DNA of 32,000 nt from an uncultured archaeon. GTDB lineage: Archaea; Asgardarchaeota; Thorarchaeia; Thorarchaeales; CAZPUN01. The notes beneath the pieces are model-generated. The model made no database searches and was not told the DNA's origin. It saw only the letters and a list, made by a program, of their open reading frames with translations. Shown here in pieces: positions 1 through 26,433 of this stretch; position 1 is the stretch's first letter; the number at the start of each line of letters is the position of its first letter. Location: contig CAZPUN010000033.1 in the NCBI GenBank assembly GCA_964589775.1, forward strand, positions 7,104 to 39,103, read 5' to 3'. Position numbers and translations under genes: made by a program.

Positions 1-3000
1 TTACTGCAGTACTACGTGAATAGTTTGTCTTTTCAAATGTTAAGTCCAAGGTGTAAATTCCAAGTTTCAGGGTTGAAAGCACTGGAAATACATAAGTTCC
101 ATTGCCGAGATCATATAATTGTGTAATTCCACCGATCCAGCTGGCAATTGCAAATGCATTCGGAATTGTCTCATTATTTAGAATGTCTTTGTAGGTAAAT
201 GTCAAATTCTTTGCTACTGTGACCGGTACAGTGTATGTGTAATTTGCAATAATAGTTGTAGGAATTTCATTGACGACTAATGTTACAATTCCAGTAGAAA
301 TACGATAGTTGGATTTTGCAAATCGGATCTTTATATTATAATCTCCGGGTACAACCGCACCAGTATTTATCGTGAAGTAATAGAGACCATTTCCAAGTTC
401 GGTAAGAGTTCCAGAGCCACCATCCCAAGTGAATGTAGCATCCGCATTTTCAACAGGAACGTCATTATGCGTGTCATTGTAGCGTAAGTAGAATGTGACA
501 TTTCTGCCATAGTATTCTGTAATCGTAGAATTCAATGCAGTGAATTTGGTAGGTATGTCTTGAATATTAATTGTTATTGTAATAGTAGCTACAGAGTAGC
601 CGGGCTTGCTAGCACGAATTGTTAGGAAGAATGTACCTACAGATAGTGTTGTTGTATCAATTGTAACTGAATACCAACCACTTCCAAATTCATTTAGAGA
701 TCCTTCAAGTCCAGTAGTCTTGTAGGTTACATTTGCATGAGTAATTGCCAAATTATGTGCAGTATCATTAAAGTATACAAGTATAGAGAGCGTATCAGTA
801 TATATCGGGTCGTAAATTAATTGACCATTGAGTACATTCAATGTAGTGGGTATTGGAGTAACACGAACTGTGATGTAAATCGTTGCATCAACACGATCAT
901 GAATGCTTGCAGATACTGTGAGTACATATGTACCGATGCTCAGTGGTGAAGTATCAATATTTGCAACATAAAATCCTGCTGTTCCATTTTCAGCCATAGT
1001 ACCAGTTACATTTCCAATTGAGTATGTAATGTTAGCACCTACAATAGGTTGTCCAGTGTTTGTCTGGTTATAGAACACCCACAGTGGTAGATGTACACCT
1101 TCAATGACTGAGATAGAGTAATGTTCAGTAATGAGTTCTGATTCAGCTTTATATACTACCACATTAATCTGTGTAATTCGGGTCTGATGATTTGTTTTTG
1201 CGGCAGTGATAGACGCAACATAAGTTCCAATTGGATTTGTAGAAGTATCTAAGATCAAGCGATAATATCCATTACCAAGTTCTGTGAAGTTGTATTCGTT
1301 TGTATTCCAAATTAAGGTAAGAGTCACATTGAGTACTGGTTCGTTTGCATACGTGTTGTTAATATAGGCATCAATTTGAATTAAATCGCCCCAATATGCT
1401 GTGTATGTTGTCTTAGTTAAGACAATTCCCATTGGAATTGCACCGGGCTGGATTGAAAGTCTGGAAGTTATGTTTGCATAAAGATACTTGTTAGCATAAA
1501 CGTTGAAGCTATAAACAATAGCACCAAGACCCGTTGTGTTAATTGTGAGCTGATAAACTCCATTACCTATCTCTGCAACTGTTGTACTCGTATGATATAG
1601 TTCAGTCCAATTAGAGCTAATGGTAGCACCAATTATTGGAACATTATGATCAATATCAGTGAGTGTAAGATTAATTATTATTGGGTCGCCCACTGGTATT
1701 GAAGCTGGCTCAGGAATATCTGCTTGAATCTTCATCTGAATTGCACGAACTGTCGCAGGAATCGCACTTGTAGTGATATTAGAGTAGAACGGAGCTATAT
1801 CACTAACATTGAGCGAGAATACAAACATGAAATTACCAATTTTGTTAAATTGACCTGAAGGCACGATTAGGCGATACAAACCATTTCCGAGTGCTATTGT
1901 GTAATTTATAATGGAACTCTTGTTCAAACATACGAAATACATTTGTGCATTATTAATCGGCTTGCTATTAATGTAATCACGGAATAATAGGGTGATAGAT
2001 AAATTGTCACCGTATGGAACAGTGGTAACTTCTTGAATTAATACTTCTGTGGGTCTTCGAGTCGTACTAAATGTTGCTTGGATACTACGGGTATCATAAT
2101 ATGGAACAACATTTCCCCAGACAACGGTTACATTGATCAGATATCTATTTAGAAGAGTTGTACTGGAGAATATCGAAGTGTTGATCGATATAGTATAAAC
2201 GCCATTGCTACCAGTTAGACTGTAATCACCGGAAGCTAATATTGTATTTGACGGACCATGCCCTATAATTATATTTGATTTATCGATACTTAGACCAGAG
2301 CCATTCAAATAGTCACTATAACTTATGATAAACGTAATGTTTTCATTGAATGGCACGTCTGCAGGAGTCTTTACAAAGTGTAAATCTACAGGACGATGCA
2401 CAACATTCACATTAATGATTTTTGATCGTGTCTGATAATATGGCGAGCCAGACTTTGAAATCGTAACATTAATTGCAAATGTATCTACACTACCAAGTGC
2501 AACAGAGGATATTGAAATGAGATACCATCCATTGCCATTATCCTGTACCCAATAGTTAACGTCTTTGACAAGTACTTCTGCAGAAGTATCACAGGATATT
2601 ACAACTAATGCATTACTTATTCCTGCACCAGTTGTATCATCACTATAGCTAACGGAAATATTTACTAATTCAAGGTATGGAGTATCTTCAGGAAATTCGT
2701 ATCCCAATTGAGTTGAACGACCAACCACGGTAATATACAAGAAATCTGTTGCATTGTTGCAAAAGTTCGTTCCAGTATAGGCAATGTGCACACTAATACC
2801 GAACAGGCCTGTTCCGTTAAGTATTGTAGTATTTAGATGCACAACATATGTACCATCACCATTATCATCCACAGTGTACCAGCCTGCTAATGTGTCATTA
2901 AGTGTAATAATTCCACCATACATATTACTGGAACTTCCAGATTCAAGATCTGTGAATGTAAATGGAATATCAATTATGTTGCCATATTGTACTGGCTGAT

Positions 3001-6000
3001 AACCACCATGAGATAATTGAGTGTGCCTACGAATAACAACTATTTGGATGGCTTCATATGTTTGATTTGCATAGAATGGTGCACCACTCCATGTTACCGA
3101 TAGATGGAACGTAAATGTACCAATGTTGTTCCAACTTGATGCATTTATCATAACTACAAATTTTCCGGTATCATCACCCAGATATACAACAGAGTAGATC
3201 ACATTTCCTTCCACAATTGAAACAGTAATTGAACTCGAATTACGAATGAATTCATTCTTAAGAACATCAACAAATGTGAATGTAAGATTGCCAATTTCAG
3301 CATATGGTGTGGTTGGAATTGGATTGAATGAGATGTACGTAGGTCGTGATTGAATCATCACGGTAACAATCATGGTTTTATTTTCATAAAGTGGTGATTG
3401 CCCGCGAGTCCAGTTCGCATAAATTCTGAACTGATATGTTCCATAGCTCATTAGTAGAGATGAATTAAGTGTGAATGAATACTCACCGGGAGATCCAGCT
3501 GGATCAACTTCTGCAATTACAAAATCGGATTGTGATACTGTTTCACCAGGATTTAGAACAACAACATAAAGATGTACATTTCCGGGATAAAGCCCTGTGC
3601 TATTTACAATTCCTGTACTATTTACAACATCATAATAAATAACTGTGAATGTAATATTATCAAGATAATAAATTGTTCCAGGGCTTTGTCCGATATACAG
3701 GTCAGTTTGAGTACCAGTAATTCTGACACGTATGGTGAGTGTTTTGTTTTCATATTTGGGTTCTGCACCAGTCCAATTCACATAAACTGTAAACTCTTTC
3801 CAACCAATACTACCCCATTGGGCTGTAGGAATGGTTATATTATAATGTCCATCACCAGTTGTAGCATTAGCTACATAATAAATCGGCGAAGCAACTTCGG
3901 GTATTACAACATAAATTAAGACATTATGCCCATTTGCAGTTCCATTCGCAATACCTTCGTCTAAATCAGCATCGTAATAGTATACAAGAACGGTAATATT
4001 TGAACCATAAGCGGTCTGGGATACAGGTTCATCTAGAGTAAAACTTGTAGCATGAGAACGAACTTCAATGGTAATATATATCGTATGGTTTTGACAACCA
4101 TAGCGGGATACCGTAATTGCTACAGTCCAGCTTTTGAGAGGATCTGTATTGACCGTATAGAAGGTCATATTGTATACTCCATTTCCGAGTTCTGTAAGAG
4201 TATAATTTGGATCCCCTAAAGAGTGATAAGAAGTCCAATTAGCAGTGATGTTTGAAACTGCCCCAGTAATTGGTTCATCATGATCGATATCCCAGTATGT
4301 TAGATTTATTGATACGGCCTCACCCAAAGGTATCGGGAGATAATTTGCAGACGTCGTAAATGAAGTGTATAGTTCATGAACAGTAACATACATGGATAAT
4401 GTTACAGTATGATAGAATTCCTTTGCGAATGTTATATCGACAACATAGCTCTTTAGTTCTACTGAACTCGTATTCAGTTCTACTTTATAATGTCCGGGGC
4501 TTCCAGTAATGGGATATATAGTGTATGCATTTGCGCTCCAATTACAACTTAGTGGAGCATTACTAATTGGATTACCCATCTGGTCTTCAAGATACACGTT
4601 AAACGAAATATTCCAGCCTTTTGGACCAGAAACTCCGGGATATTGTGGCGAGGACATATGGGATTCATAATATACGTAGATTATAAGATCTTGAACTACA
4701 GCATCAAAATATTGTCTTTGCCAAGAGATTCGTATGACAAACTTTCCATTACTTCCTAACTGAGTCGTATTGAGAATTGTTGCATATTCTCCGTTTCCAT
4801 TATCATCCATATACTCGGTTCCAGTGGTCCAATTGTAAGTCATTACTCCAGATGGAACTAGAATACCACTATCAGTATCATGAGCCCTAATTCTCAATAG
4901 AACCAAGTCGCCATATGTTACATTTGTATTCCAGTCAGAAGATGCATCTGAAGGATCTACAACAGATAGAGCGGTTGCATGAGTCACTGTGAACTTTCTA
5001 AGGAAGAATCCAACATCGTATATACCACCTGCACTAACAGTACTGTTTGTATATGCTTGAATTGTCCATTCTCCTGCTGATGCATTACTTCCCGCTAAAT
5101 TAAATACGCCTGTAGTAGCGATTCCTGAGGATACTGTTGCGATAGTTGTCGCCCATACAGAACCATCAGGAGCAAAAATCGTAAAGTTAACTTTATCACC
5201 ATCAAATGATGTACCCACATAGGCACGAATCTGTATTGAATCACCAGCTCTGAAGTTTCCTGTTTTAGACCACGTGGAAGTACTTGAATCATATATTTCA
5301 AGATTAGTAATCATATTTGGAGAAACACCTTTAATTGGCCAGAATCCAATCTTGTCTGCAAATGGAATCGTATCTACAGATACATTGAGATATCCGTCGC
5401 CATAATCTCCACCAGACCACCCACTAGTAAGATTTGTATTGGGATCCAATGGTTTTGCAACAAACCGCACATCACGCGTTGTAGGAATTGTTAGATTATA
5501 GAAGTAATCATCTTCATATCCAACTGGAATCTGAACAAGGAAATATGAAGACCAAGATGCATCACTACCATTACTTATTTCGAAGTTTTCGCCTATAGCT
5601 GACGGGTCTGCAGCATATACAGTCTTATTCACTTCGTTTCTAGCGTATAGGTTTAGAGAGACATCAAACTCAACTTCAATGTATAAATCGGGATCAGGTG
5701 GATTAGGAGATGGCGTCCATGTGAAGTTTGCAATTGCTGAAGTACCAGTCCATAAATATGATTGAGATACTGCACCAGTACCGTAAATAGCTCCATCATT
5801 TACGGTAAGAGAATTCATCTTCAGATTAATTTGACTGGGGGCAACTTTAGTTTTCATATATAATTTTACATTGTCAATTCGTGCAGCGGGTAAAATATCT
5901 GGATTATATCCAACACTTTGAGTTGTTAGAAGACCTATTTCAATAGTGAATGTATCGCCATTATCAAGGTCTAATAAACTTGGATCTAGATTAATTAATC

Positions 6001-6829
6001 CAGTATTATACCAGACATTTTCCGCTCCAATTTGACTGAAGGCTAATGTCCAATCACGATCATTTACATTTGTTGAATTTATGATCATATAGAGAACAAA
6101 TGAACCAGTCATACCATAGTGAGTTGTATCTCGAGTCTCGGCTTGATAATCCATCGAGAATGCCATCCATGTTATAGTGCCACGGTCCACAGTTACAGTT
6201 TGACGAGCATATACATGATCTCCATTATCATACCAATAGTTTCCACTACTGTATCGTCCATCAATTGTGAAACGAACGTCATCATCATTTGTTCCGTGGC
6301 CATCATCTTCCCAGAAGGAATTCATTGTGTTTGCAGAACCTGCATCTGATGTACCAAGAGTCCAACCAGTTGCGCTTCCTTGAAATCCGGGATTTGTAAC
6401 CCATGTCCGGTTTTCAGTAATATGAGTTAGATGAGCATCCATGTAATATCCAGTCCAATCTTTACCAATGGGTACAGAGGGCGTTGCATAGCTTGTACCA
6501 CTTGCGGGGTCATAGTGGATTTTTATGTCTTCATAAGACACAGTACGATTTGCATATTGCCCCGCAGGATTTCCTGCGCCAATACCGGAATAAGATTTCC
6601 ATACGCCTGATGCAACATCATATTCCCAAAGTATTTCATCAGGTGAGATATTGACCTTAGTCCCATCATCTAGTACAATAGTACTTGATGGAGGCGAAGA
6701 GCTCTTATGTTCAGCCCCAGGATACACGGGAATGCCATTTCCAAAATAGGAAATTGAAAATAGCATAATCATTACTAATACCATTGCATTGACTTTATTT
6801 ATTTTCCGAATATTCTTTCCCATCTTCAT
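1..6829 (-). CDS. Giant cell-surface glycoprotein with Ig-like repeats, paralogue B (partial, >2276 aa, 3' end beyond the left edge)
   Basis: Not in the ORF track. ATG at 6829 lies 4 nt after the upstream TGA, with a GGTGA SD overlapping that stop. Manual translation gives MKMGKNIRKINKVNAMVLVMIMLFSISYFG (signal peptide) ...ENRTWVTNPGF...IDNVKLYMKT...FTWTPSPNPPDPDL...QWGSIGWKEFTVYVNWTG...GIYTLDLTFEKTNYSRSTAV at the edge, all in one frame and colinear with the 2604-aa protein. The absence of a stop-terminated ORF in this frame in the track is consistent with no internal stop. Confidence 0.93.
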   Translation of the reverse strand, partial: MKMGKNIRKINKVNAMVLVMIMLFSISYFGNGIPVYPGAEHKSSSPPSSTIVLDDGTKVNISPDEILWEYDVASGVWKSYSGIGAGNPAGQYANRTVSYEDIKIHYDPASGTSYATPSVPIGKDWTGYYMDAHLTHITENRTWVTNPGFQGSATGWTLGTSDAGSANTMNSFWEDDGHGTNDDDVRFTIDGRYSSGNYWYDNGDHVYARQTVTVDRGTITWMAFSMDYQAETRDTTHYGMTGSFVLYMIINSTNVNDRDWTLAFSQIGAENVWYNTGLINLDPSLLDLDNGDTFTIEIGLLTTQSVGYNPDILPAARIDNVKLYMKTKVAPSQINLKMNSLTVNDGAIYGTGAVSQSYLWTGTSAIANFTWTPSPNPPDPDLYIEVEFDVSLNLYARNEVNKTVYAADPSAIGENFEISNGSDASWSSYFLVQIPVGYEDDYFYNLTIPTTRDVRFVAKPLDPNTNLTSGWSGGDYGDGYLNVSVDTIPFADKIGFWPIKGVSPNMITNLEIYDSSTSTWSKTGNFRAGDSIQIRAYVGTSFDGDKVNFTIFAPDGSVWATTIATVSSGIATTGVFNLAGSNASAGEWTIQAYTNSTVSAGGIYDVGFFLRKFTVTHATALSVVDPSDASSDWNTNVTYGDLVLLRIRAHDTDSGILVPSGVMTYNWTTGTEYMDDNGNGEYATILNTTQLGSNGKFVIRISWQRQYFDAVVQDLIIYVYYESHMSSPQYPGVSGPKGWNISFNVYLEDQMGNPISNAPLSCNWSANAYTIYPITGSPGHYKVELNTSSVELKSYVVDITFAKEFYHTVTLSMYVTVHELYTSFTTSANYLPIPLGEAVSINLTYWDIDHDEPITGAVSNITANWTSYHSLGDPNYTLTELGNGVYNMTFYTVNTDPLKSWTVAITVSRYGCQNHTIYITIEVRSHATSFTLDEPVSQTAYGSNITVLVYYYDADLDEGIANGTANGHNVLIYVVIPEVASPIYYVANATTGDGHYNITIPTAQWGSIGWKEFTVYVNWTGAEPKYENKTLTIRVRITGTQTDLYIGQSPGTIYYLDNITFTVIYYDVVNSTGIVNSTGLYPGNVHLYVVVLNPGETVSQSDFVIAEVDPAGSPGEYSFTLNSSLLMSYGTYQFRIYANWTRGQSPLYENKTMIVTVMIQSRPTYISFNPIPTTPYAEIGNLTFTFVDVLKNEFIRNSSSITVSIVEGNVIYSVVYLGDDTGKFVVMINASSWNNIGTFTFHLSVTWSGAPFYANQTYEAIQIVVIRRHTQLSHGGYQPVQYGNIIDIPFTFTDLESGSSSNMYGGIITLNDTLAGWYTVDDNGDGTYVVHLNTTILNGTGLFGISVHIAYTGTNFCNNATDFLYITVVGRSTQLGYEFPEDTPYLELVNISVSYSDDTTGAGISNALVVISCDTSAEVLVKDVNYWVQDNGNGWYLISISSVALGSVDTFAINVTISKSGSPYYQTRSKIINVNVVHRPVDLHFVKTPADVPFNENITFIISYSDYLNGSGLSIDKSNIIIGHGPSNTILASGDYSLTGSNGVYTISINTSIFSSTTLLNRYLINVTVVWGNVVPYYDTRSIQATFSTTRRPTEVLIQEVTTVPYGDNLSITLLFRDYINSKPINNAQMYFVCLNKSSIINYTIALGNGLYRLIVPSGQFNKIGNFMFVFSLNVSDIAPFYSNITTSAIPATVRAIQMKIQADIPEPASIPVGDPIIINLTLTDIDHNVPIIGATISSNWTELYHTSTTVAEIGNGVYQLTINTTGLGAIVYSFNVYANKYLYANITSRLSIQPGAIPMGIVLTKTTYTAYWGDLIQIDAYINNTYANEPVLNVTLTLIWNTNEYNFTELGNGYYRLILDTSTNPIGTYVASITAAKTNHQTRITQINVVVYKAESELITEHYSISVIEGVHLPLWVFYNQTNTGQPIVGANITYSIGNVTGTMAENGTAGFYVANIDTSPLSIGTYVLTVSASIHDRVDATIYITVRVTPIPTTLNVLNGQLIYDPIYTDTLSILVYFNDTAHNLAITHANVTYKTTGLEGSLNEFGSGWYSVTIDTTTLSVGTFFLTIRASKPGYSVATITITINIQDIPTKFTALNSTITEYYGRNVTFYLRYNDTHNDVPVENADATFTWDGGSGTLTELGNGLYYFTINTGAVVPGDYNIKIRFAKSNYRISTGIVTLVVNEIPTTIIANYTYTVPVTVAKNLTFTYKDILNNETIPNAFAIASWIGGITQLYDLGNGTYVFPVLSTLKLGIYTLDLTFEKTNYSRSTAV

Positions 6830-6833
6830 GATC

Positions 6834-9800
6834 TCACCCTCTTAGAATTGTATCCAGCAAGGCGTCTAAATCGGCTCTTGAGAGCTCTTTCGCCTGCTCA
6901 AGTATTAATTCGATCTCAGAGTCTGAAATTCCTTTTTCTTTAAGTTTCTTTCTTAATTCTTCAATCTCTTCTTCTGTCAAATGTTCGGGTTTCTCCTTAG
7001 GCTTAGGCTTCTCAATAGGAGTCTTCCCTTCGGCAATAGCTTTCGCCCGCCGAGCCCGCTCTTGTGCTATTACCTCCTTAACGAATCCTATTCTCTCACT
7101 TGCTTTCATCTTGTATAGATCTTCCTTGAATTCTTCAATGTCTTCCTCAGATAGACCTGTAATAGATGCCAACTCTTCAAGTAGTGCACTAAGCTCTGGG
7201 ACTTTGATACTAATCGGAAATTCAACAATGTCATCTGGTGTCTTCGTAATTCCAAAAGGCTCTAGATATTGCTGTATAATGGAAATAAGTATTTCATGAC
7301 GGGACGGTGCGGGAGGTACAGGAGGTATCTTACCTTTCTCAAGTCTTTTAACAATCTTGTTAATTCTTCGAACGGGCTTTGGAATACTAAATACCTTAAT
7401 CCATAACGCACCAAGAATTACAATAACAAAGATTCCTACGAAGCCATAAGAGATCATTCTGAAGAATGCCATTTGCTGTTCATTGTATTGAGAATAAACT
7501 ATGATTTGAATTTCACTAGTTCTGTAATCCTGCTTGTGAGCTTTGATATTTATGAAGAATGTTCCGATATCATTAATTGTAAAGTTCATAGCATATGTTC
7601 CGTTGTTGTAGTCTATGACTTTACCCTCAAAATGAATTCTATCTGAAGAAGTATCGACATCAATCGTTGCATTAGGTATAGATCTATTGTGATATGTGTC
7701 GTAATAGACAAATCTTAGAGTATATAGATCTCCAGGCGAGAAGTACACCTCAGTTACAGATATCTTAATTTCTGTAGGAATCAAAATGATTGAGAGAACA
7801 ACTTCTTCTTGCTTAATAGAGTAGTTCATCTTAGAGAATACGAGCGTCAATGTGTAATTATTAGGTTCTAACTTGAACTGATCCTCAAATGATGATGAAC
7901 TGAATACGTATGTTCCATTGTGCATATCTGTGAGTTCAACGATTCCAAATGTCCATAACAATGAGACAGAGGCATTAGGAATTCCAAGATCATTAAGAGA
8001 ATCCATGTAGGTAAATCTTAAATTGAATGGGTCTCCAACAGGATAAATCAATTTCTGCGGTAGAATTACAGTTGTCGGAATCTCCTTAATTCGTAATATG
8101 ACAGACTTGCGTGCTGAATCATGATACTTTGCATCAAGAACAATTGTGATACTATATTGTCCGGGTCTTGCTTCACCAGTATTGACAATAATATAGAAGG
8201 TTCCGTTTCCATAAGAATATACATTTCCAGAACCAATAATCCAGCGATAAGTTCCATTTGCTGCTAAAATTGCTTTGTTATTTAACGTGTCATTAAAGTA
8301 TACTTTGAATGTAACATTTCGTCCATAATATTCCTCAATTACGGGGTTTAGTGTTATTATTTCCGTAGGAATAGACAGTACATTTAATGTTGGACGAATA
8401 TACGCGGAACGATATCCAGTTTTCTGAGCAGTGATAGAAATGTAAAAGCTTCCAATTTCTGCTTTTGATGTGTTTATAATTGCAAAGTACCATCCATTGC
8501 CAAGTTCTGTTAAGTTTCCAGAAGCGAATGTAGAGGAATACATTACTGTTGCATGTAATACTGGAATGTTCAACTTGGTGTTGTATACATATACAGTAAT
8601 ATTCACGGTTTGACCGTGATAACAATTGATAATTTGAATTCCGTCTTTTATACTAATTGCAGTAGGTACAGACTCGATTGTTAATGTCATGAATACACTT
8701 GATTCTGCATAGTTATCTTTCTTTGCACTGATATATAACGTATAGGTTCCAATTGGATATTCATTGATCGTAATATTTCCAACATAATAACCTGCGGTTC
8801 CATTTGCAATTAATGTACCACTGCCAAATTCCCACTCGAATGTAACAGTCGCACCACTTATGGGATGACCAAAATATGTGTCGTTATAGAAGACCCAGAA
8901 GGTAATTGTTTCTTGATCGACTGCTTCAAATGTAAGCGTGTCACTTGAAAGTGATGTACTAACCTTTATAATCGTCAGCGTAACTTGAGCAACAGGTGAA
9001 CGATAATTTGTTTTATTTCCGGAAATTGTAATGATATAGGTACCCACAGGCTCAATTTGTGTATTAAATGTCAAACTGTATGTTCCATTTCCATATGAAG
9101 TGAAATTCGTATATGTATTACCTGCCCAGACTGCTTGTAAATCGAATCCGGTTAATGGAAGTACATTGTGGCTATCCCATACTGTAAGAACTATAGTAAC
9201 ATTCTCAGTCCATACTACTGAAATTACAGATTTCTTCAAATCAATTGATGTAGGAATTGGTGCTAACTCAATATCGACATCCGCAGTCTTATTAAGGTGT
9301 GTTTGCTTGCCTGCCCAAACTGTAAATGAATATACTTGAGCATTCAACCCTACAGTTGAAATATTTAATTGATAAATACCATTTCCAAGTTCTGTAATTG
9401 TAATTGAAGTACCATAGAGCTGCTGCCAGTTTACAGTAATATTTGCACCTTCAATTCCAGTATCACTATCAATATTCCAATAGGTCACGTTTGCAATTAC
9501 ATTGTCGCCGACAGGGACGGTACCAGGAGTTGGAACACTCACTTGTAATAAAGTACTAATAGATCGTAAAGTAGCATATACATGACCGTTTAATTGATCT
9601 TGATAGTATGGACTTGGTGTGTATGTGAAATTGACAGAGAACAAGTATTTTCCTAGATTCGGTAATTGTGAGCTGTTAACTATGAATGAGTAATATCCAT
9701 TGCCAAGATATATTACATCATAAGTAATTGAACCCGTTGCATTGATACATATAAGTGATGTATTAGCACCACTAATACCACGGGTTGTGTAAAAGTCTTC

Positions 9801-12800
9801 ATATCGAATAGTAATTGTAATATTATTTCCATACGCAACTGAAGGCACCTGCAAGAACACAAGCCTAGTTGGTCGTTCAACAATACTAACTTCTGTAGTA
9901 ACACTAATGTTGTCATAGTATGGAGCAATATTACCCCAGATTATTGTTATGTTGATTATATGACCAGATACTAAGACTGATGTAAGTATTGTCGAATTCA
10001 AAGATATAGTGTATAAGCCAGAACCACCTGTGAGTACATATTGGTTTGCAGTAATCAAAGTATTGGACGTACCATGAGTAAGGATTATGTTCGCTTTCGT
10101 AATGTCGATTCCACTATCGGTAAGACCATCACGGAATGAGAACTGGAATGTGACATTATTCATGAATGGTGTGTCGACAGGTGTCTTCACGATAGTTAAT
10201 TTCGCATTTCTTAATGTGACAACAACTTCAACAGTACGAGAATTATCGGTATAATAAGGTATTCCAGTCCAACTTGCTACAATATCAATCTCATAGGAAC
10301 CAAGACCACCAAGGGCAGTAGTATTAATGGATACAAGATACCATCCATTACCTTGGTATGATACAAAATAGTTAACATTTAATTGTAATGTCTCATTTGC
10401 TGTTGCACAGCTTGCAGTAATAGTTGCACCATAAATTCCACGGCTTGTAGTATCATCATAGTATCGTACCGATATATTTGCGAATTCAAGATATGGTGCA
10501 GGGTCTGGAATCTCATAACCAAGCTGAGCTCTTCTTTGTATTACAACAACATAAAATACATCTACAGCGTTATCGCAATAATTCGAACCATTATAAGTGA
10601 CCGTAGCAACAACTGCAAATGTACCGAGATTCTGGAATCCAGATGAGTTCAAATATAATGTAAATGATCCGTCACCATTGAACGTGTACGTGTAATATCC
10701 AGCTAAGCTAGCATTAAGTTCTAAAGTTCCAGACATACCAGTAGTAGAACCAGAATCAAGATCGGTATATGTGAAACTGAGAGTTAGCACATTTGCAAAT
10801 TGAACGGGTTCATAAGAGCCATGAGTTAGCTGAGTATGACGATAACGGATATTTATTGTGATTTCCTGACCTGTGTGATTTTGATAGAATGGCCACCCAA
10901 CTAACGTAACATTTAGATGAAATACAAATGTACCAGGATTGCCCCAGCTTGTTGTATTAATTTCAAAATGGAACATACCAGTATCATTTCCATCGTAATA
11001 GATGACGTAAATTATACCGCTTTCTACAATAGATACATACATATTAGAAGAATAATTAATGTGATTACCACTTAACAGATCTACAACCTTGAATGAGAAG
11101 TTTACTAACTCATTGTATGGCGTAGTAGGTATAGGAGTCCAATCAATATATGTTTGTCTCTGAAGAACTCTGAATATTATCTCAATTGTTTGATTTTCAT
11201 ATAGTGGAAGTTGTCCCTTCGTCCAATTGAATTGGATACGAACTGTAAATTCACCTATACGAGAAAGCTTAGAGGTGTCCAGTTTAAATTCGTAGTATCC
11301 GGCTTGAGTTTCATTAATCCAGAAATCAGATTGTGTAACACTCTCACCACTGGTTATCATTGTAATGAATACGTGTACATTTCCAGCATAAGCTCCGGTT
11401 GAATTTGCAATTCCAGTATTATTGGCTGTGTCCCAATATGCTAAAGTCCAAGAAGTATTTGTCATATATTGGACAGCATCAGGACTATGTATGATTTTTA
11501 TCATTGTTTCGGAGCCTGTAATTCGCACTTTGATATCCAACGTCTTATTATAGTATTTTAATGAAGAGCCGGTCCAATTTACATAAACTGTAAACTCTTT
11601 CCAGCCAATACTACCCCATTGGTCTGCAGGTAGTGTAATATTATAATGACCTGCACCAGTAGTCGCATTTGTTACAACGTATTGCAGATTGATACCAGAA
11701 GCAACTAAATAAATCAGTACATTATGACCATTAGCAGTGTCATTGGCAATTCCAACGTTCATAGATGCATCATAGTAATAGACAGTCACAACAATCGTTC
11801 CGGTATATGGCGTAGGATTAACGGGATTATCTAGTGAAAATGACGTGAGGTGTGTCTTTACATCAATATGAATTGTAAGCGTGTGATTCTGATAACCATA
11901 TTTTTCAATATTAATCTGAACCGTATAACTACCAAGTGGATCATTATTGTATGAGTAAAATCGAATTCTATAAACTCCATTTCCATAATCAAATATAGTG
12001 TAATTTATTTGCCCTGAAGTATGGAAGCTACACCAATCTGTTGAAAATGCATCACTATCACCAATCATCGGCAAGTCTTGATCTGTATCATGATAGGTAA
12101 TATTCAAATCAACGTATCCACCCACGGGTAACGTTAAGAATGATGCGGACGGTGTAGCAGAAGTATATAGTTCTCGAACTGTGACTTGAAGAATTATTTT
12201 CTTGGAATATACATATTCCTTCGATGCATTAATTTCTATCTTGTAAGTTCCTAAGTCATATGGCTCTGCATTTATATGAATTCGATATGAGCCAGGAGTT
12301 CCAGTTGCAATAACAGAATAGTCAGACCAATTACATGTAATTGTAGCTCCCGTGATTCCATTATTGTTTTGGTCTACAAAATCAACATAAATATCACCGT
12401 AAGCCGTCTTAGGAACTGAAATTCCGGGTGATGATGATGAAGTTAATTGTGAGTCATAATAAACTTCGAGATAGAAATAATGCTGTTTTGAATCATAATA
12501 TGCTTTACTCCAAGAGATGCTTAAGGTAAATCGCCCATTACTACCCAGTTGTGTTGTATTAAGAACTACGCTGTATTCACCAGTTCCAAGATCACTTAAC
12601 TGTTCGATTCCGGTAGTCCAATTATATGTCATTACACCGCCAGGGACACTCTCACCCGCATCAACATCCTGAATACGGATTTTTACAAGAATATTATCAC
12701 CAAAAGTTGCTGTTGTAGTCCAAGTACTCTGTGCTGATAATGGATAGTAAAGGGTAATATCAGTAGCATGTGTTATTGTGAATTTTCTTAAGAAGAAACC

Positions 12801-14648
12801 TACATTATTTAGTGCTCCAAGAGCCGAATCATTTGCCCAGACTTGAATTGTCCATTCACCCACAGTTGCATTAGTACCACCTAATGTAAAAGCATCAGAG
12901 TACGCATAACCAGTAGCATCAACTGTGGAAGTGCATGAATACCATAAGTTTCCACTCGGGTCGTAGATTGTAAAATTAACTACTGCGTTTGCATAAGCAG
13001 TACCAATATATGCACGTATTTTAGTCCGATCATTTGCTCTGAAATTGTATGTCTTAGAGTAAGTACTAGTACTTGGAACTAAAACTTCAACGTTTGAAAT
13101 CATGTTAGGTGATGTGCCTTTAAGTTTCCAATAACCATTTATTCTCTGTGAGGTTTCACCATATTCTGTGTAAATAATTTCAGCTGCACTAATATTTACC
13201 AAACCGTCGCCAGGATCTCCATAACTCCACCCACTTGTTTGATTCAGCCAGGGCTTAGAAGGTTCAGCTAAGAAATTAATATCTCGATTTTGAGGTATTG
13301 TAACATTGAAGAAGAAATGTGGGTCATATCCTGACGGCACCGCAACATAATAATAGAAGTTCCATTGAACATTCGTGCCATTTTGCACTGAGAAATGCTC
13401 ACCTAATGCACCAGGATCAATATCATAAATTGTCTTTCCATTTAATCGTCGTGCATATAATGTTAATTGAACGTCCATTTCAACAATAATTGTCAGGTCA
13501 GGGTCAGGTGGATTAGGAATTGGAGTCCATGTGAATACTGCATCAACACTTGATCCAGTCCAGGGTGTTGAAGGTACTTGAGTTACTTGACCCATGCCCC
13601 ATAAGGTATTACTACCACTTTGTACATCTGAAACATCAATATTATTCATTTTCAAATTCAGGTTAGAGGGCTTTGCTTCAGTTTTCATATACAGATGTAC
13701 ATTATCAAAATACGCACGTGGAGAAATATCAATATAACCATACCATTCGGTTTGAGTAGTATTTAAACCAAGCTCAATTGTTACATCAGGTAATGTAAAT
13801 ATATCTGGAGAAACGGGAATCAAACCAGTATTATACCAATTTTCAGAGGGAATAGCATCATAGACTCTGCTCCAGACTTTATGTCTAACACCATTAGAAA
13901 TTATCGTAACATAAATTTCAAAGAATCCAGTGGGAGTATATCCATATCTATCCCAAGCCGTAGTAACTCGATAGCTTAAAGATACAGCCGCCCAAAATAC
14001 ATTCCCACGATCTATTGACATAGATTGTTGTACATATGCATAATCACCTGCATCGTACCAGTACCACGTGTTACCGCCGCCAGAACCATCATAGCTGTAT
14101 GAAGTGTATTCACCATCTATACCTAAGGATGCAACACCAGAATCAACCTGATGAATGAAACTATTTACATAATGAGGGTTCCCACTATCGTCAGTATATG
14201 GTTGAAGATCATTATGCCCAAAAGTCCAGTAGCTGGTATCATCAAAACCAGGATTTCGAACCCATGTACGGTTCTCAGATAAATTAGTAATATTAGCGAA
14301 AAGACGATAACCTTCCCAGTTAGAACCAAGAGGGACTGAATCTGTTGCACTTGTAGTTCCGCTTCCGGGAATATACCGCAGTTGCGTAGCCGCAAACGTA
14401 TCAGTACGGTCACCATATTCATACACATCAAGTGCATCACCAGTACCTGAATATTCGCTTAATGCTTGCGATATAGTAAATGTGTCTATATCAGGTACTG
14501 AATTTTGGTTATCGATTTCAGTATCCGCATTTGACTCAACCACTCTATCATCAGTATTTCTATTTAGATTAATAATTGGAAATACAGCTAGAGTGGGCAG
14601 AACAAGAATAACCAATAGTAATATCATCTTTTTATTTTTCAATAGCAA
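6834..14648 (-). CDS. Giant single-pass (type I) cell-surface glycoprotein, paralogue A, 2604 aa
   Basis: Basic plus hydrophobic N-terminal signal. NPGF...YFDNV jelly-roll-like head. About 17 repeats of 90-120 aa (T-x-L...Y-x-D...I-x-G-A...G-N-G-x-Y...N-T...G-x-Y...K-x-x-Y). Very many N-x-S/T sequons. TM helix ISYGFVGIFVIVILGALW at about 7401-7455, followed by a charged helical tail. TTG start at 14648 or 14642 (the latter is better spaced from the GAGGTG SD). Confidence 0.93.
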   Translation of the reverse strand: MLLKNKKMILLLVILVLPTLAVFPIINLNRNTDDRVVESNADTEIDNQNSVPDIDTFTISQALSEYSGTGDALDVYEYGDRTDTFAATQLRYIPGSGTTSATDSVPLGSNWEGYRLFANITNLSENRTWVRNPGFDDTSYWTFGHNDLQPYTDDSGNPHYVNSFIHQVDSGVASLGIDGEYTSYSYDGSGGGNTWYWYDAGDYAYVQQSMSIDRGNVFWAAVSLSYRVTTAWDRYGYTPTGFFEIYVTIISNGVRHKVWSRVYDAIPSENWYNTGLIPVSPDIFTLPDVTIELGLNTTQTEWYGYIDISPRAYFDNVHLYMKTEAKPSNLNLKMNNIDVSDVQSGSNTLWGMGQVTQVPSTPWTGSSVDAVFTWTPIPNPPDPDLTIIVEMDVQLTLYARRLNGKTIYDIDPGALGEHFSVQNGTNVQWNFYYYVAVPSGYDPHFFFNVTIPQNRDINFLAEPSKPWLNQTSGWSYGDPGDGLVNISAAEIIYTEYGETSQRINGYWKLKGTSPNMISNVEVLVPSTSTYSKTYNFRANDRTKIRAYIGTAYANAVVNFTIYDPSGNLWYSCTSTVDATGYAYSDAFTLGGTNATVGEWTIQVWANDSALGALNNVGFFLRKFTITHATDITLYYPLSAQSTWTTTATFGDNILVKIRIQDVDAGESVPGGVMTYNWTTGIEQLSDLGTGEYSVVLNTTQLGSNGRFTLSISWSKAYYDSKQHYFYLEVYYDSQLTSSSSPGISVPKTAYGDIYVDFVDQNNNGITGATITCNWSDYSVIATGTPGSYRIHINAEPYDLGTYKIEINASKEYVYSKKIILQVTVRELYTSATPSASFLTLPVGGYVDLNITYHDTDQDLPMIGDSDAFSTDWCSFHTSGQINYTIFDYGNGVYRIRFYSYNNDPLGSYTVQINIEKYGYQNHTLTIHIDVKTHLTSFSLDNPVNPTPYTGTIVVTVYYYDASMNVGIANDTANGHNVLIYLVASGINLQYVVTNATTGAGHYNITLPADQWGSIGWKEFTVYVNWTGSSLKYYNKTLDIKVRITGSETMIKIIHSPDAVQYMTNTSWTLAYWDTANNTGIANSTGAYAGNVHVFITMITSGESVTQSDFWINETQAGYYEFKLDTSKLSRIGEFTVRIQFNWTKGQLPLYENQTIEIIFRVLQRQTYIDWTPIPTTPYNELVNFSFKVVDLLSGNHINYSSNMYVSIVESGIIYVIYYDGNDTGMFHFEINTTSWGNPGTFVFHLNVTLVGWPFYQNHTGQEITINIRYRHTQLTHGSYEPVQFANVLTLSFTYTDLDSGSTTGMSGTLELNASLAGYYTYTFNGDGSFTLYLNSSGFQNLGTFAVVATVTYNGSNYCDNAVDVFYVVVIQRRAQLGYEIPDPAPYLEFANISVRYYDDTTSRGIYGATITASCATANETLQLNVNYFVSYQGNGWYLVSINTTALGGLGSYEIDIVASWTGIPYYTDNSRTVEVVVTLRNAKLTIVKTPVDTPFMNNVTFQFSFRDGLTDSGIDITKANIILTHGTSNTLITANQYVLTGGSGLYTISLNSTILTSVLVSGHIINITIIWGNIAPYYDNISVTTEVSIVERPTRLVFLQVPSVAYGNNITITIRYEDFYTTRGISGANTSLICINATGSITYDVIYLGNGYYSFIVNSSQLPNLGKYLFSVNFTYTPSPYYQDQLNGHVYATLRSISTLLQVSVPTPGTVPVGDNVIANVTYWNIDSDTGIEGANITVNWQQLYGTSITITELGNGIYQLNISTVGLNAQVYSFTVWAGKQTHLNKTADVDIELAPIPTSIDLKKSVISVVWTENVTIVLTVWDSHNVLPLTGFDLQAVWAGNTYTNFTSYGNGTYSLTFNTQIEPVGTYIITISGNKTNYRSPVAQVTLTIIKVSTSLSSDTLTFEAVDQETITFWVFYNDTYFGHPISGATVTFEWEFGSGTLIANGTAGYYVGNITINEYPIGTYTLYISAKKDNYAESSVFMTLTIESVPTAISIKDGIQIINCYHGQTVNITVYVYNTKLNIPVLHATVMYSSTFASGNLTELGNGWYFAIINTSKAEIGSFYISITAQKTGYRSAYIRPTLNVLSIPTEIITLNPVIEEYYGRNVTFKVYFNDTLNNKAILAANGTYRWIIGSGNVYSYGNGTFYIIVNTGEARPGQYSITIVLDAKYHDSARKSVILRIKEIPTTVILPQKLIYPVGDPFNLRFTYMDSLNDLGIPNASVSLLWTFGIVELTDMHNGTYVFSSSSFEDQFKLEPNNYTLTLVFSKMNYSIKQEEVVLSIILIPTEIKISVTEVYFSPGDLYTLRFVYYDTYHNRSIPNATIDVDTSSDRIHFEGKVIDYNNGTYAMNFTINDIGTFFINIKAHKQDYRTSEIQIIVYSQYNEQQMAFFRMISYGFVGIFVIVILGALWIKVFSIPKPVRRINKIVKRLEKGKIPPVPPAPSRHEILISIIQQYLEPFGITKTPDDIVEFPISIKVPELSALLEELASITGLSEEDIEEFKEDLYKMKASERIGFVKEVIAQERARRAKAIAEGKTPIEKPKPKEKPEHLTEEEIEELRKKLKEKGISDSEIELILEQAKELSRADLDALLDTILRG

Positions 14649-18450: not shown

Positions 18451-20076
18451 TTATTGGTAAAATGAAAAATATGATTCAAATTGATTATACCAATCATTCC
18501 ATGTAGGAGGATGTTTAAATTCTTGATTTATTGTATCCCAATATTCAACTGGAAGATTCCTAAAGAATTCCATTTTACGACCTACAAAATATATTGAGAA
18601 TGATAAATCTTCAAAGTCTTGAAGGTAAATTCTGAGCATATCACCGATTTTGATTGAGGTACCATAGGGAATTTTTATTCGCACTAATGTAGAGTTTTCA
18701 TTATCTGAAATGATATATATTAGCGGTAATTTTCTTAATCCATTTAATACACCTTTTTGCTTTGAGATAGGCCCACGTATGAGAAGATATAGGGTATCAT
18801 GAAGACCTAAATTTCCAAGAATAGTGTAGTCTTTAACATATCCAAAATGATATAATTCACGCTTAATGCTTCTAACTTCAGACTGGCTTAGTTTGAGATT
18901 TTTCGCAATTTCCGAAATTGTCGAATTTTCTTTGAGAAGTTCATTTGCGATGTAAATATATTTTTTACTTAATGTTGTAGAGATGTAAATCGAGTATTGT
19001 GGAAAGTTAAACTTGCACTTTGCTGCTCTCTGTGCTTGCTTTAACCATATTGCCCAATTAAAATCCCACTTATCCTTAATTAACTTTAAAATTGCAAAAT
19101 TGGTGTGAATACTATAACTTCTTCGTTGCAGAGATATAATATTATAATAATCTCTAAGTTTTGAGAGCATATGATTAAATTCTCTGAGAGAACGATTTCG
19201 ATTATATAATTCAAAAACAGCTATTATACCACCAGCATGTGAAATTATTGGCCAATATGCCCATAAGAATGGATTCCCTACAAAAATTTCACTCGGATGA
19301 ATCAATTCAGTTCGCTTACGTTGAAAAATTACATAGAAGATAGGCATATTAAATTTTTGAGAAATATATACTGGTTTTTCTATCAATAATCCTTTTGCTT
19401 TCAATCTTGATATCGCAGAGAAAATTGTCCGTTTAGCAAGACCAGTCGTTAATAATAAATGGTCTATATCGATCTCTTGCGTATAATCAATATTATCAAG
19501 AATTTTCAATTCACTTGGACTCACTCGTGGTGGGATTTCATAAATGATTTCATCAATAAAACGATAATAATTTACTTCATCTAAGGTATTGCACATTTCA
19601 GAATATTTGTTGAGAGATTCAAAGACTATTTGTACAAATTTGTTTGCAGTATATTTATTATAAAGAGGAAATTTTTGGGGGGCATCATATTCAACATAGC
19701 CATCCGTAAATCTCTTTGAATGCAATTTCCATAATTCATGCCAATATTTTGATTCGACTTCACTTAAATGTATTCGAGCGAATTCGTTTCCAAGATCTGC
19801 TGTTGATGGGATATTTTTACAAAATGATGGCAAATATTGCAGGAAAACTTCTCTTAGAACAATTCCTTTTATTATTTTATCGAGATTATATTTCGTATTT
19901 AGTAACAGTATATTATCTTTTAGGAATCCAGCAAAACGAGGTCCAATTTCTTCTTTTTGTACATATGAAATGTTGTCAATCTGTATTTTCTTGGCAGGCA
20001 CCTTTAGATATTGTGAAACAACATTATTTGACCAAAGCAAGAGATCTTTAATATCATCTTCATCCATTGCTATCAT
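18451..20076 (-). CDS. Large regulator-like protein with two winged-HTH/Lrp-AsnC-like modules and an extra N-terminal domain
   Basis: SELKILD...IDHLLLTTGLAKRTIFSAISRLKAKGLL and TISEIAKNLKLSQSEVRSIKRELYHFGYVK, each followed by an alpha/beta segment of ACT/RAM-like size. Confidence 0.7.
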   Translation of the reverse strand: MIAMDEDDIKDLLLWSNNVVSQYLKVPAKKIQIDNISYVQKEEIGPRFAGFLKDNILLLNTKYNLDKIIKGIVLREVFLQYLPSFCKNIPSTADLGNEFARIHLSEVESKYWHELWKLHSKRFTDGYVEYDAPQKFPLYNKYTANKFVQIVFESLNKYSEMCNTLDEVNYYRFIDEIIYEIPPRVSPSELKILDNIDYTQEIDIDHLLLTTGLAKRTIFSAISRLKAKGLLIEKPVYISQKFNMPIFYVIFQRKRTELIHPSEIFVGNPFLWAYWPIISHAGGIIAVFELYNRNRSLREFNHMLSKLRDYYNIISLQRRSYSIHTNFAILKLIKDKWDFNWAIWLKQAQRAAKCKFNFPQYSIYISTTLSKKYIYIANELLKENSTISEIAKNLKLSQSEVRSIKRELYHFGYVKDYTILGNLGLHDTLYLLIRGPISKQKGVLNGLRKLPLIYIISDNENSTLVRIKIPYGTSIKIGDMLRIYLQDFEDLSFSIYFVGRKMEFFRNLPVEYWDTINQEFKHPPTWNDWYNQFESYFSFYQ

Positions 20077-20489: not shown

Positions 20490-22679
20490 TTATCGCCTTT
20501 TGATTTTTATTAATACAATGATTGCAGAAATAGCAGCAATCGCCAATATTCCATACAACAGAGGCGTAGGCATTTGTGCTACTGGTTCACCTTGTACAGT
20601 ATATGTTGCACTTTGTACAGCATTATCCATTATATCCAGTGCTAATATGTAATAACTAAGTGTATAGTTTTCAGATACGGGTGGCACTTTAAGTTCCCAA
20701 TGATCTCCTTTGTTATCCATAAGTATTTTTGTTTCATGCTCATAGGGAGTTGTAATAACGACATAAACCGCATAAACAGCAGTTTCATTATCACGAACAA
20801 CTGCACAAATTGTAAATCCATCAGAAACTTTGGGATGCTCGGGTATGGTATATACTGAGACTATTTGAGGTGCATAATGGTCGTCCCACATTTTGTTAAG
20901 CAACAGGTATTGCTCATAAGCTTGCTTCGCATAGAGCACTGCAGCAGTGTAATTCATCTTGAAGAAATAATAATCAGACATTGTCAAACTTTCATTAATT
21001 TCATTTAGCTGGCGTTCGATCGGTGATATATATGGACCAGCGCCGTGCAAATCAACCATGACACTAAGACCGTGTTTCACTTCACCATAATACCAATTAG
21101 CATATTGTCGCTTTAACCAATCCTGATAAAATGAATTATATTTTACAGCAGTAGTAAAGTAGCCCATTGAGCCGTCTGTGAAGTCTGCCGCCATATGGCC
21201 ATAAGTCCAGGGATGCCCAAGACCAAGGTTATGACCAGTCTCATGAATTAGAACATGACTTATTCCAGATTTTGGAGTCACACCGTCCGGCATGTAGTAT
21301 CGGTCTCTCGATTTTAGAATGATTGTCTGACCGCCACCGCCTAAACCTGTAAAGTTGCCAAGACCTGTAATCACCATTGTTAATTTAGAACGCACAATGA
21401 TGATACTAGTAACTACTAAATCTGCCCGATTTAGATCAAATATTTCGCCTCGCAAGGCATATAATTTGTTGAACAAACTATTTCCATCGATCATCCACCA
21501 ATCAGGATCATTACTTGGAAGTTTTGATTCATTGACCTGTTCATAGATCATGGGATAATCTTCAATATCACCAAGGGTTACATCCATGGACCAATTTACG
21601 AAAGGTAATGCGTCATATAATGGTCCCAATAGTCGCTTGGGATTCGTAAGCCATCGGAGTTCATTTGCAGTATGACCACTCTTTTTGTCTCCATTCAGAA
21701 TAAGAGTTTGAATAGATATTGAATCTTTAACAGGTGTTGCCCAATTATGCTGCCCAGCAAATAAAGGTCCTACAAGATCATTTATCCACCGACCTAAATA
21801 ATTGGCAAGTGCATCCTGACCCGCAGAGGTAGATAAATTATACGAACGTTGAATGTCATCTAGGTCATGGAAGAAATATGTTGGACATTTAGAATATTCA
21901 TAAACATTACTCCACCATATTGCGCCCCATTTCAAATACCATTGCGTTGCGGATGGGTCCAAAATGTATACACGCCCATTTCCACCAATACCGGGATATG
22001 TATATTTGACATCAGGATTTAATGCATTGTCCCATTCTAATCTGAACCAATTCACTGTTCGATTAGAGTCAGGATCTTTAGTAGCATAAGTAAACCAATG
22101 TTCCCAGCTATGGTCTGGTGAATCCCATTCAGAGTAATTCAGGATATAAATTGTATATCCATTTGTAGGAGGCTTTACCAACGGATGCTCAATAAAATAG
22201 TTTTCGATTTTCGTTGCATTTATGGAAATACCATTTTGTGGTAAAAATATGGAACGAGGTACGCCGTCATTTCGCTGAGCCCATAGTGCAGTTTCATTAA
22301 GCTTTGAACCAGTTCCAGTTGCATTTATAGAGTTATTTAGCAAAAGGGAGCCAATATAAGATTTCATACTACTATTCATAAAGATATATTGAAAATCAAA
22401 ATTTATCCTTAGAGTCCAATTTGGGTATAACGATTGCATATATGAGTGCTCTAAATATGAATCTAGTCGCGAAGTGTTCATAACATTAGAATCCCAGCCA
22501 ATAAAGGCAATTTTGACCGTCATATCATTTACTCGTGAATAAATTGATGAGGAAATTGATTTATTTTCTTCCAATTGAGAAGTATGAATTGAATTTGTGT
22601 TTAGAGTGTTTAATGGAATAATAGGTAAAATAAACAGAAATATAACCAAAAAAGTAATTCGTCCTCTCACTTTTATCAC
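20490..22679 (-). CDS. Secreted, C-terminally membrane-anchored zinc metalloprotease (metzincin motif)
   Basis: Signal peptide; HETGHNLGLGH (HExxHxxGxxH) with downstream GSMGY Met-turn candidate; C-terminal beta-sandwich, TM helix and KIKRR tail; several N-glycosylation sequons. Confidence 0.88.
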   Translation of the reverse strand: MIKVRGRITFLVIFLFILPIIPLNTLNTNSIHTSQLEENKSISSSIYSRVNDMTVKIAFIGWDSNVMNTSRLDSYLEHSYMQSLYPNWTLRINFDFQYIFMNSSMKSYIGSLLLNNSINATGTGSKLNETALWAQRNDGVPRSIFLPQNGISINATKIENYFIEHPLVKPPTNGYTIYILNYSEWDSPDHSWEHWFTYATKDPDSNRTVNWFRLEWDNALNPDVKYTYPGIGGNGRVYILDPSATQWYLKWGAIWWSNVYEYSKCPTYFFHDLDDIQRSYNLSTSAGQDALANYLGRWINDLVGPLFAGQHNWATPVKDSISIQTLILNGDKKSGHTANELRWLTNPKRLLGPLYDALPFVNWSMDVTLGDIEDYPMIYEQVNESKLPSNDPDWWMIDGNSLFNKLYALRGEIFDLNRADLVVTSIIIVRSKLTMVITGLGNFTGLGGGGQTIILKSRDRYYMPDGVTPKSGISHVLIHETGHNLGLGHPWTYGHMAADFTDGSMGYFTTAVKYNSFYQDWLKRQYANWYYGEVKHGLSVMVDLHGAGPYISPIERQLNEINESLTMSDYYFFKMNYTAAVLYAKQAYEQYLLLNKMWDDHYAPQIVSVYTIPEHPKVSDGFTICAVVRDNETAVYAVYVVITTPYEHETKILMDNKGDHWELKVPPVSENYTLSYYILALDIMDNAVQSATYTVQGEPVAQMPTPLLYGILAIAAISAIIVLIKIKRR

Positions 22680-25354: not shown

Positions 25355-26433
25355 AAATGAAAAGCACAATACTGAAAGACAATGCAGAGTTTATCGACGA
25401 TGCATTTATGGTATGCTCGCTATGCGGAAAATGCCGCCAGACATGCCCATCATATCTTGCCAACTTATGGGAGTTTACATCACCAAGAGGAAGAATAGAA
25501 ACAACATTTGGCATCAAAGAAGGGCATATCGAACTTACAGAACGCGTGAATAGAACAATGCAACAATGTTTTACATGCGGAGCATGTGTAGAGATCTGTC
25601 CGGCTCATGTAGATGTACGTAAGGCAATATTATTAGTACGCCAGACAGCCTTTGAGGAAGGTATTCCATTACCAGAAGAACAAACAAAATTGTTGAAGCG
25701 AATCAAAGAAACAAACAACTATTATGGTAAAGAGAGCATCGTTTCAGAGCAAGGCTCGGGAGACATACTGATTTATCTCGGATGCAAATACTCCACGGAC
25801 AAATCACTCTATGAACCGCTTATTAAACAATTAAAGGAACTTGGCGTAAACTATAAGATAATTGGTCAAAACAAATGTTGTGGATTCCCATTCTATTTAG
25901 CAGGGGATATTAAAGAATTTGAAAAGCATCAGGAAGCACTTGCTGAAGAAATCAACAACAGTAATGGTAAGTTGATTGTGACTCCATGCCCGGAGGGTAT
26001 TGAAGCCTTCAAGCAGGCGGGTAAAGTAAATATCGATATCAAACACATAACTGAATTTCTGGCAGAACAGAAGAGCAAGATCAAAAAGAAAAGCGGAATC
26101 AAAAAGATTTATTATCACGACCCGTGTTACTTAGCTCGAATAGCGGGTGTTACTGAAGAGCCTAGGCAGCTCTTGGAGAATATCGATGGCGTCGAATTAA
26201 TACCATGGAAACTCAACGGCAAAACATCATTATGCAGTGGCTCAGGAGCTGGATTTACTGAACTAGCAGACCCAGAAGAAGCTCAGGCAACATTAAACAG
26301 ACATATACAGGCGATCAAGGAATTGGGAGCTGAAGCTATTGTGACAGCGTGCCCGCATGCATATGAACAGTTCAAGAAACAGAAAGAACTACCGGTATTC
26401 ACTGTTGAAGGCTTCATTCAGGAGTGTAAATAA
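25351..26433 (+). CDS. Fe-S oxidoreductase, GlcF/HdrD-like (2x[4Fe-4S] plus two degenerate CCG domains)
   Basis: CSLCGKCRQTCP and CFTCGACVEICP; YLGC...CCG...CPEG; YHDPC...LCSG...CPHA. Overlaps the glcD stop (GTGA); alternative ATG at 25357. Confidence 0.88.
   Translation: MKMKSTILKDNAEFIDDAFMVCSLCGKCRQTCPSYLANLWEFTSPRGRIETTFGIKEGHIELTERVNRTMQQCFTCGACVEICPAHVDVRKAILLVRQTAFEEGIPLPEEQTKLLKRIKETNNYYGKESIVSEQGSGDILIYLGCKYSTDKSLYEPLIKQLKELGVNYKIIGQNKCCGFPFYLAGDIKEFEKHQEALAEEINNSNGKLIVTPCPEGIEAFKQAGKVNIDIKHITEFLAEQKSKIKKKSGIKKIYYHDPCYLARIAGVTEEPRQLLENIDGVELIPWKLNGKTSLCSGSGAGFTELADPEEAQATLNRHIQAIKELGAEAIVTACPHAYEQFKKQKELPVFTVEGFIQECK

Follow-up and report, generated by a model that had tools for sequence, protein, structure and literature searches.

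To our knowledge, the surface proteins of Asgard archaea are almost wholly uncharacterised. Elsewhere, the tetrabrachion canopy of Staphylothermus marinus has a 70-nm stalk by which its outer part is held off the membrane, and the integrin alpha/beta heterodimers and clustered protocadherins of animals are built of single-pass chains with large ectodomains, the protocadherins combining a variable outer part with a conserved cytoplasmic part and being encoded in tandem gene arrays. The giant adhesins of bacteria, such as SiiE (2yn5), the extender of the Marinomonas large adhesion protein (6xi3), invasin/intimin (1cwv, 1f02) and FdeC (4e9l), possess Ig-like extender regions; they are encoded by single genes, vary in repeat number between strains, and are anchored through an outer-membrane barrel or a type-I secretion plug. 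In Sulfolobales, two adjacent, co-expressed and non-paralogous genes, SlaA and SlaB (8qox), build a single surface structure whose stalk has a defined length, and only SlaB is anchored. Closer to the locus described here are proteins of cultured Asgard archaea, namely the adhesin-like membrane proteins with fibronectin/Ig repeats in Nerearchaeum marumarumayae (bioRxiv 10.1101/2025.07.22.663070) and the 'complex surface proteins' of Ca. Lokiarchaeum ossiferum (PMC9834061). Such proteins, which are of the Loki type, consist of a signal sequence, long tandem beta-sandwich repeats, one transmembrane (TM) segment and, in some cases, a propeller tip, and occur where no crystalline S-layer exists; in the available parts of these reports they are described as single genes.

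Two neighbouring genes, A (upstream member) and B (downstream member), encode giant proteins with the same features as the Ig/FN3-repeat single-pass surface proteins of Asgard archaea, i.e., a signal sequence, tandem beta-sandwich domains and one TM segment. Since giant proteins of this build have been noted in Loki-type Asgard archaea, the kind is already known; what sets the present genes, which are thorarchaeotal, apart from them is the coupled pair, the fixed repeat number and the tail family. Unlike the bacterial giant adhesins, A and B end in a C-terminal TM helix with a cytoplasmic domain and form a coupled pair with 17 repeats each. In contrast to SlaA/SlaB, both carry the TM helix and the tail and are 44% identical to each other, and the fold match to SlaB is poor (rmsd 7.8–21 Å). 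The first-pass annotation had compared the proteins loosely with cadherins and integrins; because no integrin, FG-GAP, beta-I or cadherin domain was found in A or B with Pfam (E <= 0.1), this comparison holds as an analogy of layout and not as homology. PGF-CTERM is absent from the extreme C-terminus of A and B, where some 180 cytoplasmic residues, which have no NCBIfam match, extend beyond the TM helix. Membership in the integrins, the cadherins, the SlaA/SlaB system or the PGF-CTERM S-layer proteins was rejected, each failing on defining features. No description of this pair, of a fixed 17-domain stalk or of the tail family was found in these two reports or by full-text searching of the literature.

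The window, i.e., the whole stretch of DNA analysed, is 32,000 nucleotides long (G000:C33:7104–39103). The features of the pair are given below in window coordinates unless stated otherwise.

6834–14648, minus strand: gene A (upstream member), an ORF of 2604 aa with a TTG start
14627, minus strand: alternative ATG start of A, which would give 2597 aa
14559–14648, minus strand: signal peptide of A, residues 1–30, hydrophobic segment 5–30; low confidence in the AF2 model
12744–14477, minus strand: head of A, residues ~58–635, all-beta and multi-domain; AF2 mean pLDDT 85.8
13680–14276, minus strand: carbohydrate-binding-module-like beta jelly roll, A residues ~125–323, from the head model
12771–13109, minus strand: putative MG2-like (macroglobulin) domain, basal in the head, A residues ~514–626, from the head model
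7488–12743, minus strand: stalk of A, 17 contiguous Ig-like repeats of 93–116 aa each, residues 636–2387
7377–7460, minus strand: TM helix of A, residues ~2397–2424, from hydropathy and a continuous helix in the AF2 model
6837–7376, minus strand: cytoplasmic tail of A, residues 2425–2604
6826–6846, minus strand: A/B junction, comprising the A stop, 4 nt and the B ATG, with the Shine-Dalgarno-like AGAGGGTGA over the stop
1–6829, minus strand: gene B (downstream member), ATG start, residues 1–2276, frame open at the window edge
4955–6829, minus strand: signal peptide and head of B, residues 1–625, hydrophobic segment 15–35, colinear with the head of A
2–4954, minus strand: stalk of B within the window, repeats 1 to 16 (16 partial), from the repeat HMM
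L002:6130–7083, minus strand, outside the window: repeat 17, TM helix and tail of B, from the C-terminal translation

The TTG start of A is preferred because GAGGTG adjoins it just upstream and it provides the signal peptide with a basic KNKK n-region. At the junction (...AGAGGGTGA gatc ATG), the TGA stop of A lies 4 nt before the start of B and is covered by a purine-rich, Shine-Dalgarno-like stretch, GGGTGA, in agreement with the first-pass annotation, which had described two colinear genes 4 nt apart with the ribosome-binding signal over the stop of A; its proposal that the two are co-expressed is likewise upheld, as likely from the sequence. The annotation had also suggested following the contig leftward. 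There, B extends a further 977 nt beyond the edge of the window, to C33:6127, and yields an intact protein of 2601 aa, with no internal stop over its full length on the contig and with a TM helix and a tail of 182 aa that resembles the tail of A, and no further paralogue adjoins it. Thus, of the 'pair or longer array' of equal-length genes that had been envisaged, the pair stands, while an array longer than the pair does not exist in this genome and one relative has two pairs in a row.

On its 5′ side the pair is flanked by a GAPDH gene on the opposite strand, and on its 3′ side by a gene with its own ribosome-binding site for an unrelated 324-aa membrane protein; T-rich runs follow the stop of B. 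In relatives, the neighbours are housekeeping genes, including those for a class-I Trp/Tyr-type tRNA synthetase and an LPG-synthase-TM protein, and no conserved accessory gene beside the pair emerged among 30 relatives. The T-rich tract behind B and these housekeeping neighbours are in keeping with an operon limited to the pair. The 324-aa protein (L002:5018–5992, minus strand, equal to G000:C33:5018–5992) consists of a multi-pass membrane part and a soluble C-terminal part, has no Pfam match, and with this query is absent from the 30 related genomes. Elsewhere in the window, two minus-strand ORFs of 541 and 729 aa (18451–20076 and 20490–22679) lie in a low-GC stretch (0.32–0.33) and match no Pfam family at E <= 0.001, and a GlcD/GlcF-like pair (23873–26433, plus strand), in which the gene for an FAD-linked oxidase (493 aa) overlaps that for a CCG/4Fe-4S protein (360 aa), belongs to ordinary metabolism.

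A and B are built alike. Behind the signal peptide, each has a head of about 600 aa and 17 Ig-like repeats, and beyond these a single TM helix and some 180 aa of cytoplasmic tail. The hydrophobic N-terminal segment is preceded by a basic n-region in both. With an iterated repeat profile, exactly 17 contiguous repeats are delimited in B (residues 626–2382) as well as in A, although their similarity within each protein has diverged below BLAST detection; repeat length ranges from 93 to 121 aa across the two proteins, and hydropathy places the TM helix of B at residues 2393–2419. The first reading of the window, which had seen in each protein a signal peptide, a large head and a string of Ig-like repeats, had put the window edge in repeat 16 of about 17, and had assigned one TM helix and a cytoplasmic domain to A, was accurate on all these points; the edge falls at B residue 2276, in repeat 16 of 17. 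Ig-like domains, such as those of SiiE and titin, measure 3.3–4.4 nm each, and a stalk of 17 domains would be roughly 55–75 nm long if extended. The ectodomains contain 76 and 80 N-x-S/T sequons, compared with 34–35 ± 5 in shuffled sequences (an enrichment of about 8 SD), and the tails contain none and are rich in charged residues. This distribution fits an ectodomain that lies outside the cell and is heavily N-glycosylated, like other archaeal surface proteins, and a tail that lies inside.

Neither protein has a match above cut-off in Pfam or NCBIfam. Folds similar to the repeat are headed by Ig/Big/filamin-type domains, and the best of them include the S-layer proteins SbsC and Sap, nearly tied with adhesins; these S-layer matches are of a generic Ig-like kind. 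In the head, the jelly roll has the fold of carbohydrate-binding modules, and a further beta-sandwich region is present besides it and the MG2-like domain. With Pfam, no carbohydrate-binding sequence family and no thioester or A2M domain is found in A or B, the remainder being Ig-like repeats. On the basis of the modelled fold, the head may bind carbohydrate. Upstream-type orthologues of about 2900 aa carry some 300 additional residues near A head residue 158, in a loop region of the jelly roll that has low confidence in the AF2 model; the Pfam domains of these longer orthologues are of the NHL/six-bladed propeller type, and the heads of the downstream type are plain, without the insertion. 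A distal tip that is remodelled in this way is more readily explained by ligand recognition than by a lattice contact.

A and B align end to end over 2560 columns; 44% of the residues are identical, and gaps take up only 65 positions. Each repeat of A has the repeat of the same number in B as its best match, and vice versa, in 17 of 17 cases, with a mean score of 229 on the diagonal versus 59 off the diagonal, and the repeat lengths of the two correlate (r = 0.96). The domains of the head are 42–52% identical. The earlier claims that repeat n of A corresponds to repeat n of B and that a whole gene was duplicated at preserved length (2604 versus 2601 aa) are thus borne out along the entire proteins. 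At synonymous sites, A and B are close to saturation. A recent gene conversion between the two was rejected: where the residue is the same, third positions agree at 0.47 overall, and single windows of 60 codons reach 0.64–0.69 at most. Repeat 4 (window 11515–11847, A residues 934–1044) is 68–75% identical between A and B, as against 44% overall and 39% between the two clades of the relatives described below; since its third-position identity is only 0.55–0.64, this likeness is not due to recent conversion.

Thirty relatives of the same order, belonging to 15 genera, were sampled. Members of the family are present in all 30, and the canonical genes lie next to each other in 21 of them, in line with the expectation that homologues are not usually solitary; most of the remaining relatives have only fragments on short contigs. 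Neither an intact member with a foreign gene in place of its partner nor a solitary canonical member was seen among the 30. In genus g5 (G005, 96% complete), the canonical pair was not found with this query, and hence the pair is not universal in the order. All 17 orthologous junctions have a start/stop overlap of 4 or 1 nt, with an ATG or GTG start. The repeat number is 17 in all 36 orthologues whose stalk lies wholly on the contig, at only 35–55% identity, and the few orthologues with fewer than 17 repeats are cut by a contig end or broken. A search with the head retrieved 24 proteins, nearly all of 2553–2618 or 2870–2923 aa, and the named ones come from Candidatus Thorarchaeota, in keeping with the Asgard origin presumed at first reading. 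Two complete Thorarchaeota chromosomes, G154 and G155, have apparently shorter versions, but these loci hold runs of N. In another relative (L030, G028:C3:349500–369300), the upstream gene is broken up into four frames of 1441, 926, 290 and 316 aa beside an intact downstream gene; the broken gene could be a pseudogene or could reflect frameshift errors in the 916-kb contig. One genome, G021, harbours four family genes in the order up-down-up-down (L026/L027, G021:C22:1–33500), the genes of each pair overlapping and the two pairs lying some 345 nt apart, and it is this spacer that marks the pair as the unit.

In a tree of the stalks, upstream-type and downstream-type proteins are reciprocally monophyletic with SH-like support of 0.97 and 1.0, and the same two clades are obtained from the heads (0.87 and 1.0), which are only 35–40% identical between the clades. 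In both trees, A belongs to the upstream-type clade and B to the downstream-type clade. The existence of two separate clades indicates that the duplication is old and predates the split of the own family of this genome from the other family of the order; since that split, the pair has been kept as a unit. The tree of the tails joins the A and B of this genome in one group, and A has a juxtamembrane motif that resembles the downstream type, so that the two tails are not clearly differentiated here.

Conservation of the tail ranks with the highest along the protein, and polar residues in it are invariant. It starts with a basic juxtamembrane helix and a G-x-I-P-x-P motif; a helical core follows, marked by the invariant block M-K-x-S-E-R-x-G-F-x-x-E-V-I-x-Q-E, and then a linker and a terminal three-helix unit. 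The AF2 model of the last repeat, TM helix and tail of A has a pLDDT of 91.8. Among 1.84 billion sequences, the tail family comprises 104 cluster representatives, in all of which it is C-terminal, on proteins of up to 5,500 aa. Genomes of the order have 1–11 tail matches each, and this genome has 3, the tail being reused on other giants of 3,000–6,000 aa in the same genomes. The third paralogue here (G000:C21:141976–155268, locus L130, outside the window) is a protein of 4431 aa with 33 like repeats and the same tail with a longer linker, and it stands alone, as its neighbours are unrelated. The tail profile, run against species genomes, likewise returned Thorarchaeota MAGs; across the phylum, it matches 57 of 151 genomes and, besides the family of this genome, 10 of 26 families, mostly two of them (27 of 27 genomes in the sister family and 15 of 19 in one other family), with scattered weak matches elsewhere. 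In the family with 15 of 19 genomes matched, tail-bearing giants with different repeat counts are arranged in looser tandem arrays with spacers of 120–340 nt.

The tail has no known family above cut-off in Pfam or NCBIfam and no usable match in the ESM Atlas; against PDB profiles, the best match (E 0.005) is to unrelated helical proteins, and no solved structure is found by sequence. A fold search with the model of the last repeat, TM helix and tail returned a match list filled by the Ig repeat. The two helical blocks of the tail align with each other by hhalign over 19 columns at a weak probability of 59%. The terminal three-helix unit (L-S-x-x-E-I-E-x-L-R...G-x-x-x-x-E-I-x-x-I-x-x-Q-A-K-x-L) occurs in four or five tandem copies in P0061, P0122 and P0126, which suggests a multivalent docking element. 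RecX_HTH1 matches are below threshold (18–19.6 versus 26 bits) and are confined to relatives with several copies of the unit, A and B having none. In a soluble relative, P0125, the tail core lies behind a different N-terminal part, which has no Pfam match and only unnamed bacterial clusters in the Atlas. The tail may dock a conserved cytoplasmic partner.

A and B are an old, conserved and translationally coupled pair of type-I surface glycoproteins. That the two chains, in addition, work together as one adhesion or recognition unit is the favoured reading, at about even odds; it draws on the conserved start/stop overlap, the same repeat number in both clades, the fact that the pair was duplicated as a unit, and the lack of solitary members. 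Another explanation is that A and B are independent adhesins that are merely co-transcribed, each binding a different ligand alone, the pairing reflecting shared regulation and no complex. Heads that are only 35–40% identical between the clades would suit such proteins, and a propeller insertion gained in many lineages by the upstream type alone is what would be expected of diverging specificities; furthermore, these genomes also contain solitary giants with this tail, like the 33-repeat protein at C21:141976–155268, and those of the other Asgard family lie in the looser arrays mentioned above. However, overlaps in 17 of 17 junctions, equal repeat number, duplication as a unit and the lack of any solitary canonical member are more than shared regulation needs, and this explanation is considered rather unlikely.

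It could also be supposed that the proteins form a structural envelope layer, an S-layer-like canopy or spacer coat on stalks, in which the stalk sets the height and the heads form an outer sheet. The many glycosylation sequons, as in archaeal S-layer proteins, the fixed stalk length, the presence of the pair in nearly all genomes of the order and the appearance of SbsC and Sap among the best fold matches of the repeat are all compatible with this, as are the cultured Asgard relatives, which have dense surface proteins but no crystalline S-layer (PMC9834061; bioRxiv 10.1101/2025.07.22.663070). On the other hand, these fold matches are generic and nearly tied with adhesins, swapping or expansion of the tip among lineages is unusual for a lattice contact, a conserved cytoplasmic domain of 180 aa is needless for an anchor, and neither PGF-CTERM nor another sorting signal is present; a structural layer is therefore judged unlikely. 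The constancy of the stalk itself could partly reflect a lack of opportunity rather than selection on length, since repeats as divergent as these are a poor substrate for unequal crossing-over.

In the favoured reading, that A and B work together as one unit, the two chains would be made in a fixed ratio and deployed together as a two-part adhesion or recognition device. On stalks of equal length, the two different heads would sit equally far from the membrane, where they might bind glycans or the surface of a partner cell or particle; through the tail that both chains share, the device would be docked to a conserved partner in the cytoplasm. The chains would act together or touch each other. 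A more demanding version, in which they form an obligate two-chain receptor with side-by-side stalks, heads that jointly recognise a partner cell or polymer, and a tail that couples to the cytoskeleton or a switch protein, is improbable at present. If it were true, Asgard archaea would have evolved an outside-in adhesion device of their own, in the role that integrins or cadherin-catenin complexes have in eukaryotes. The pair represents a well-defined surface module across the order, though not a universal one, with coupled genes, a 17-domain stalk, a remodelled lectin-like tip and a conserved cytoplasmic domain, and it thereby offers an experimental way in to the question of whether Asgard cells link outer contacts with the cell interior.
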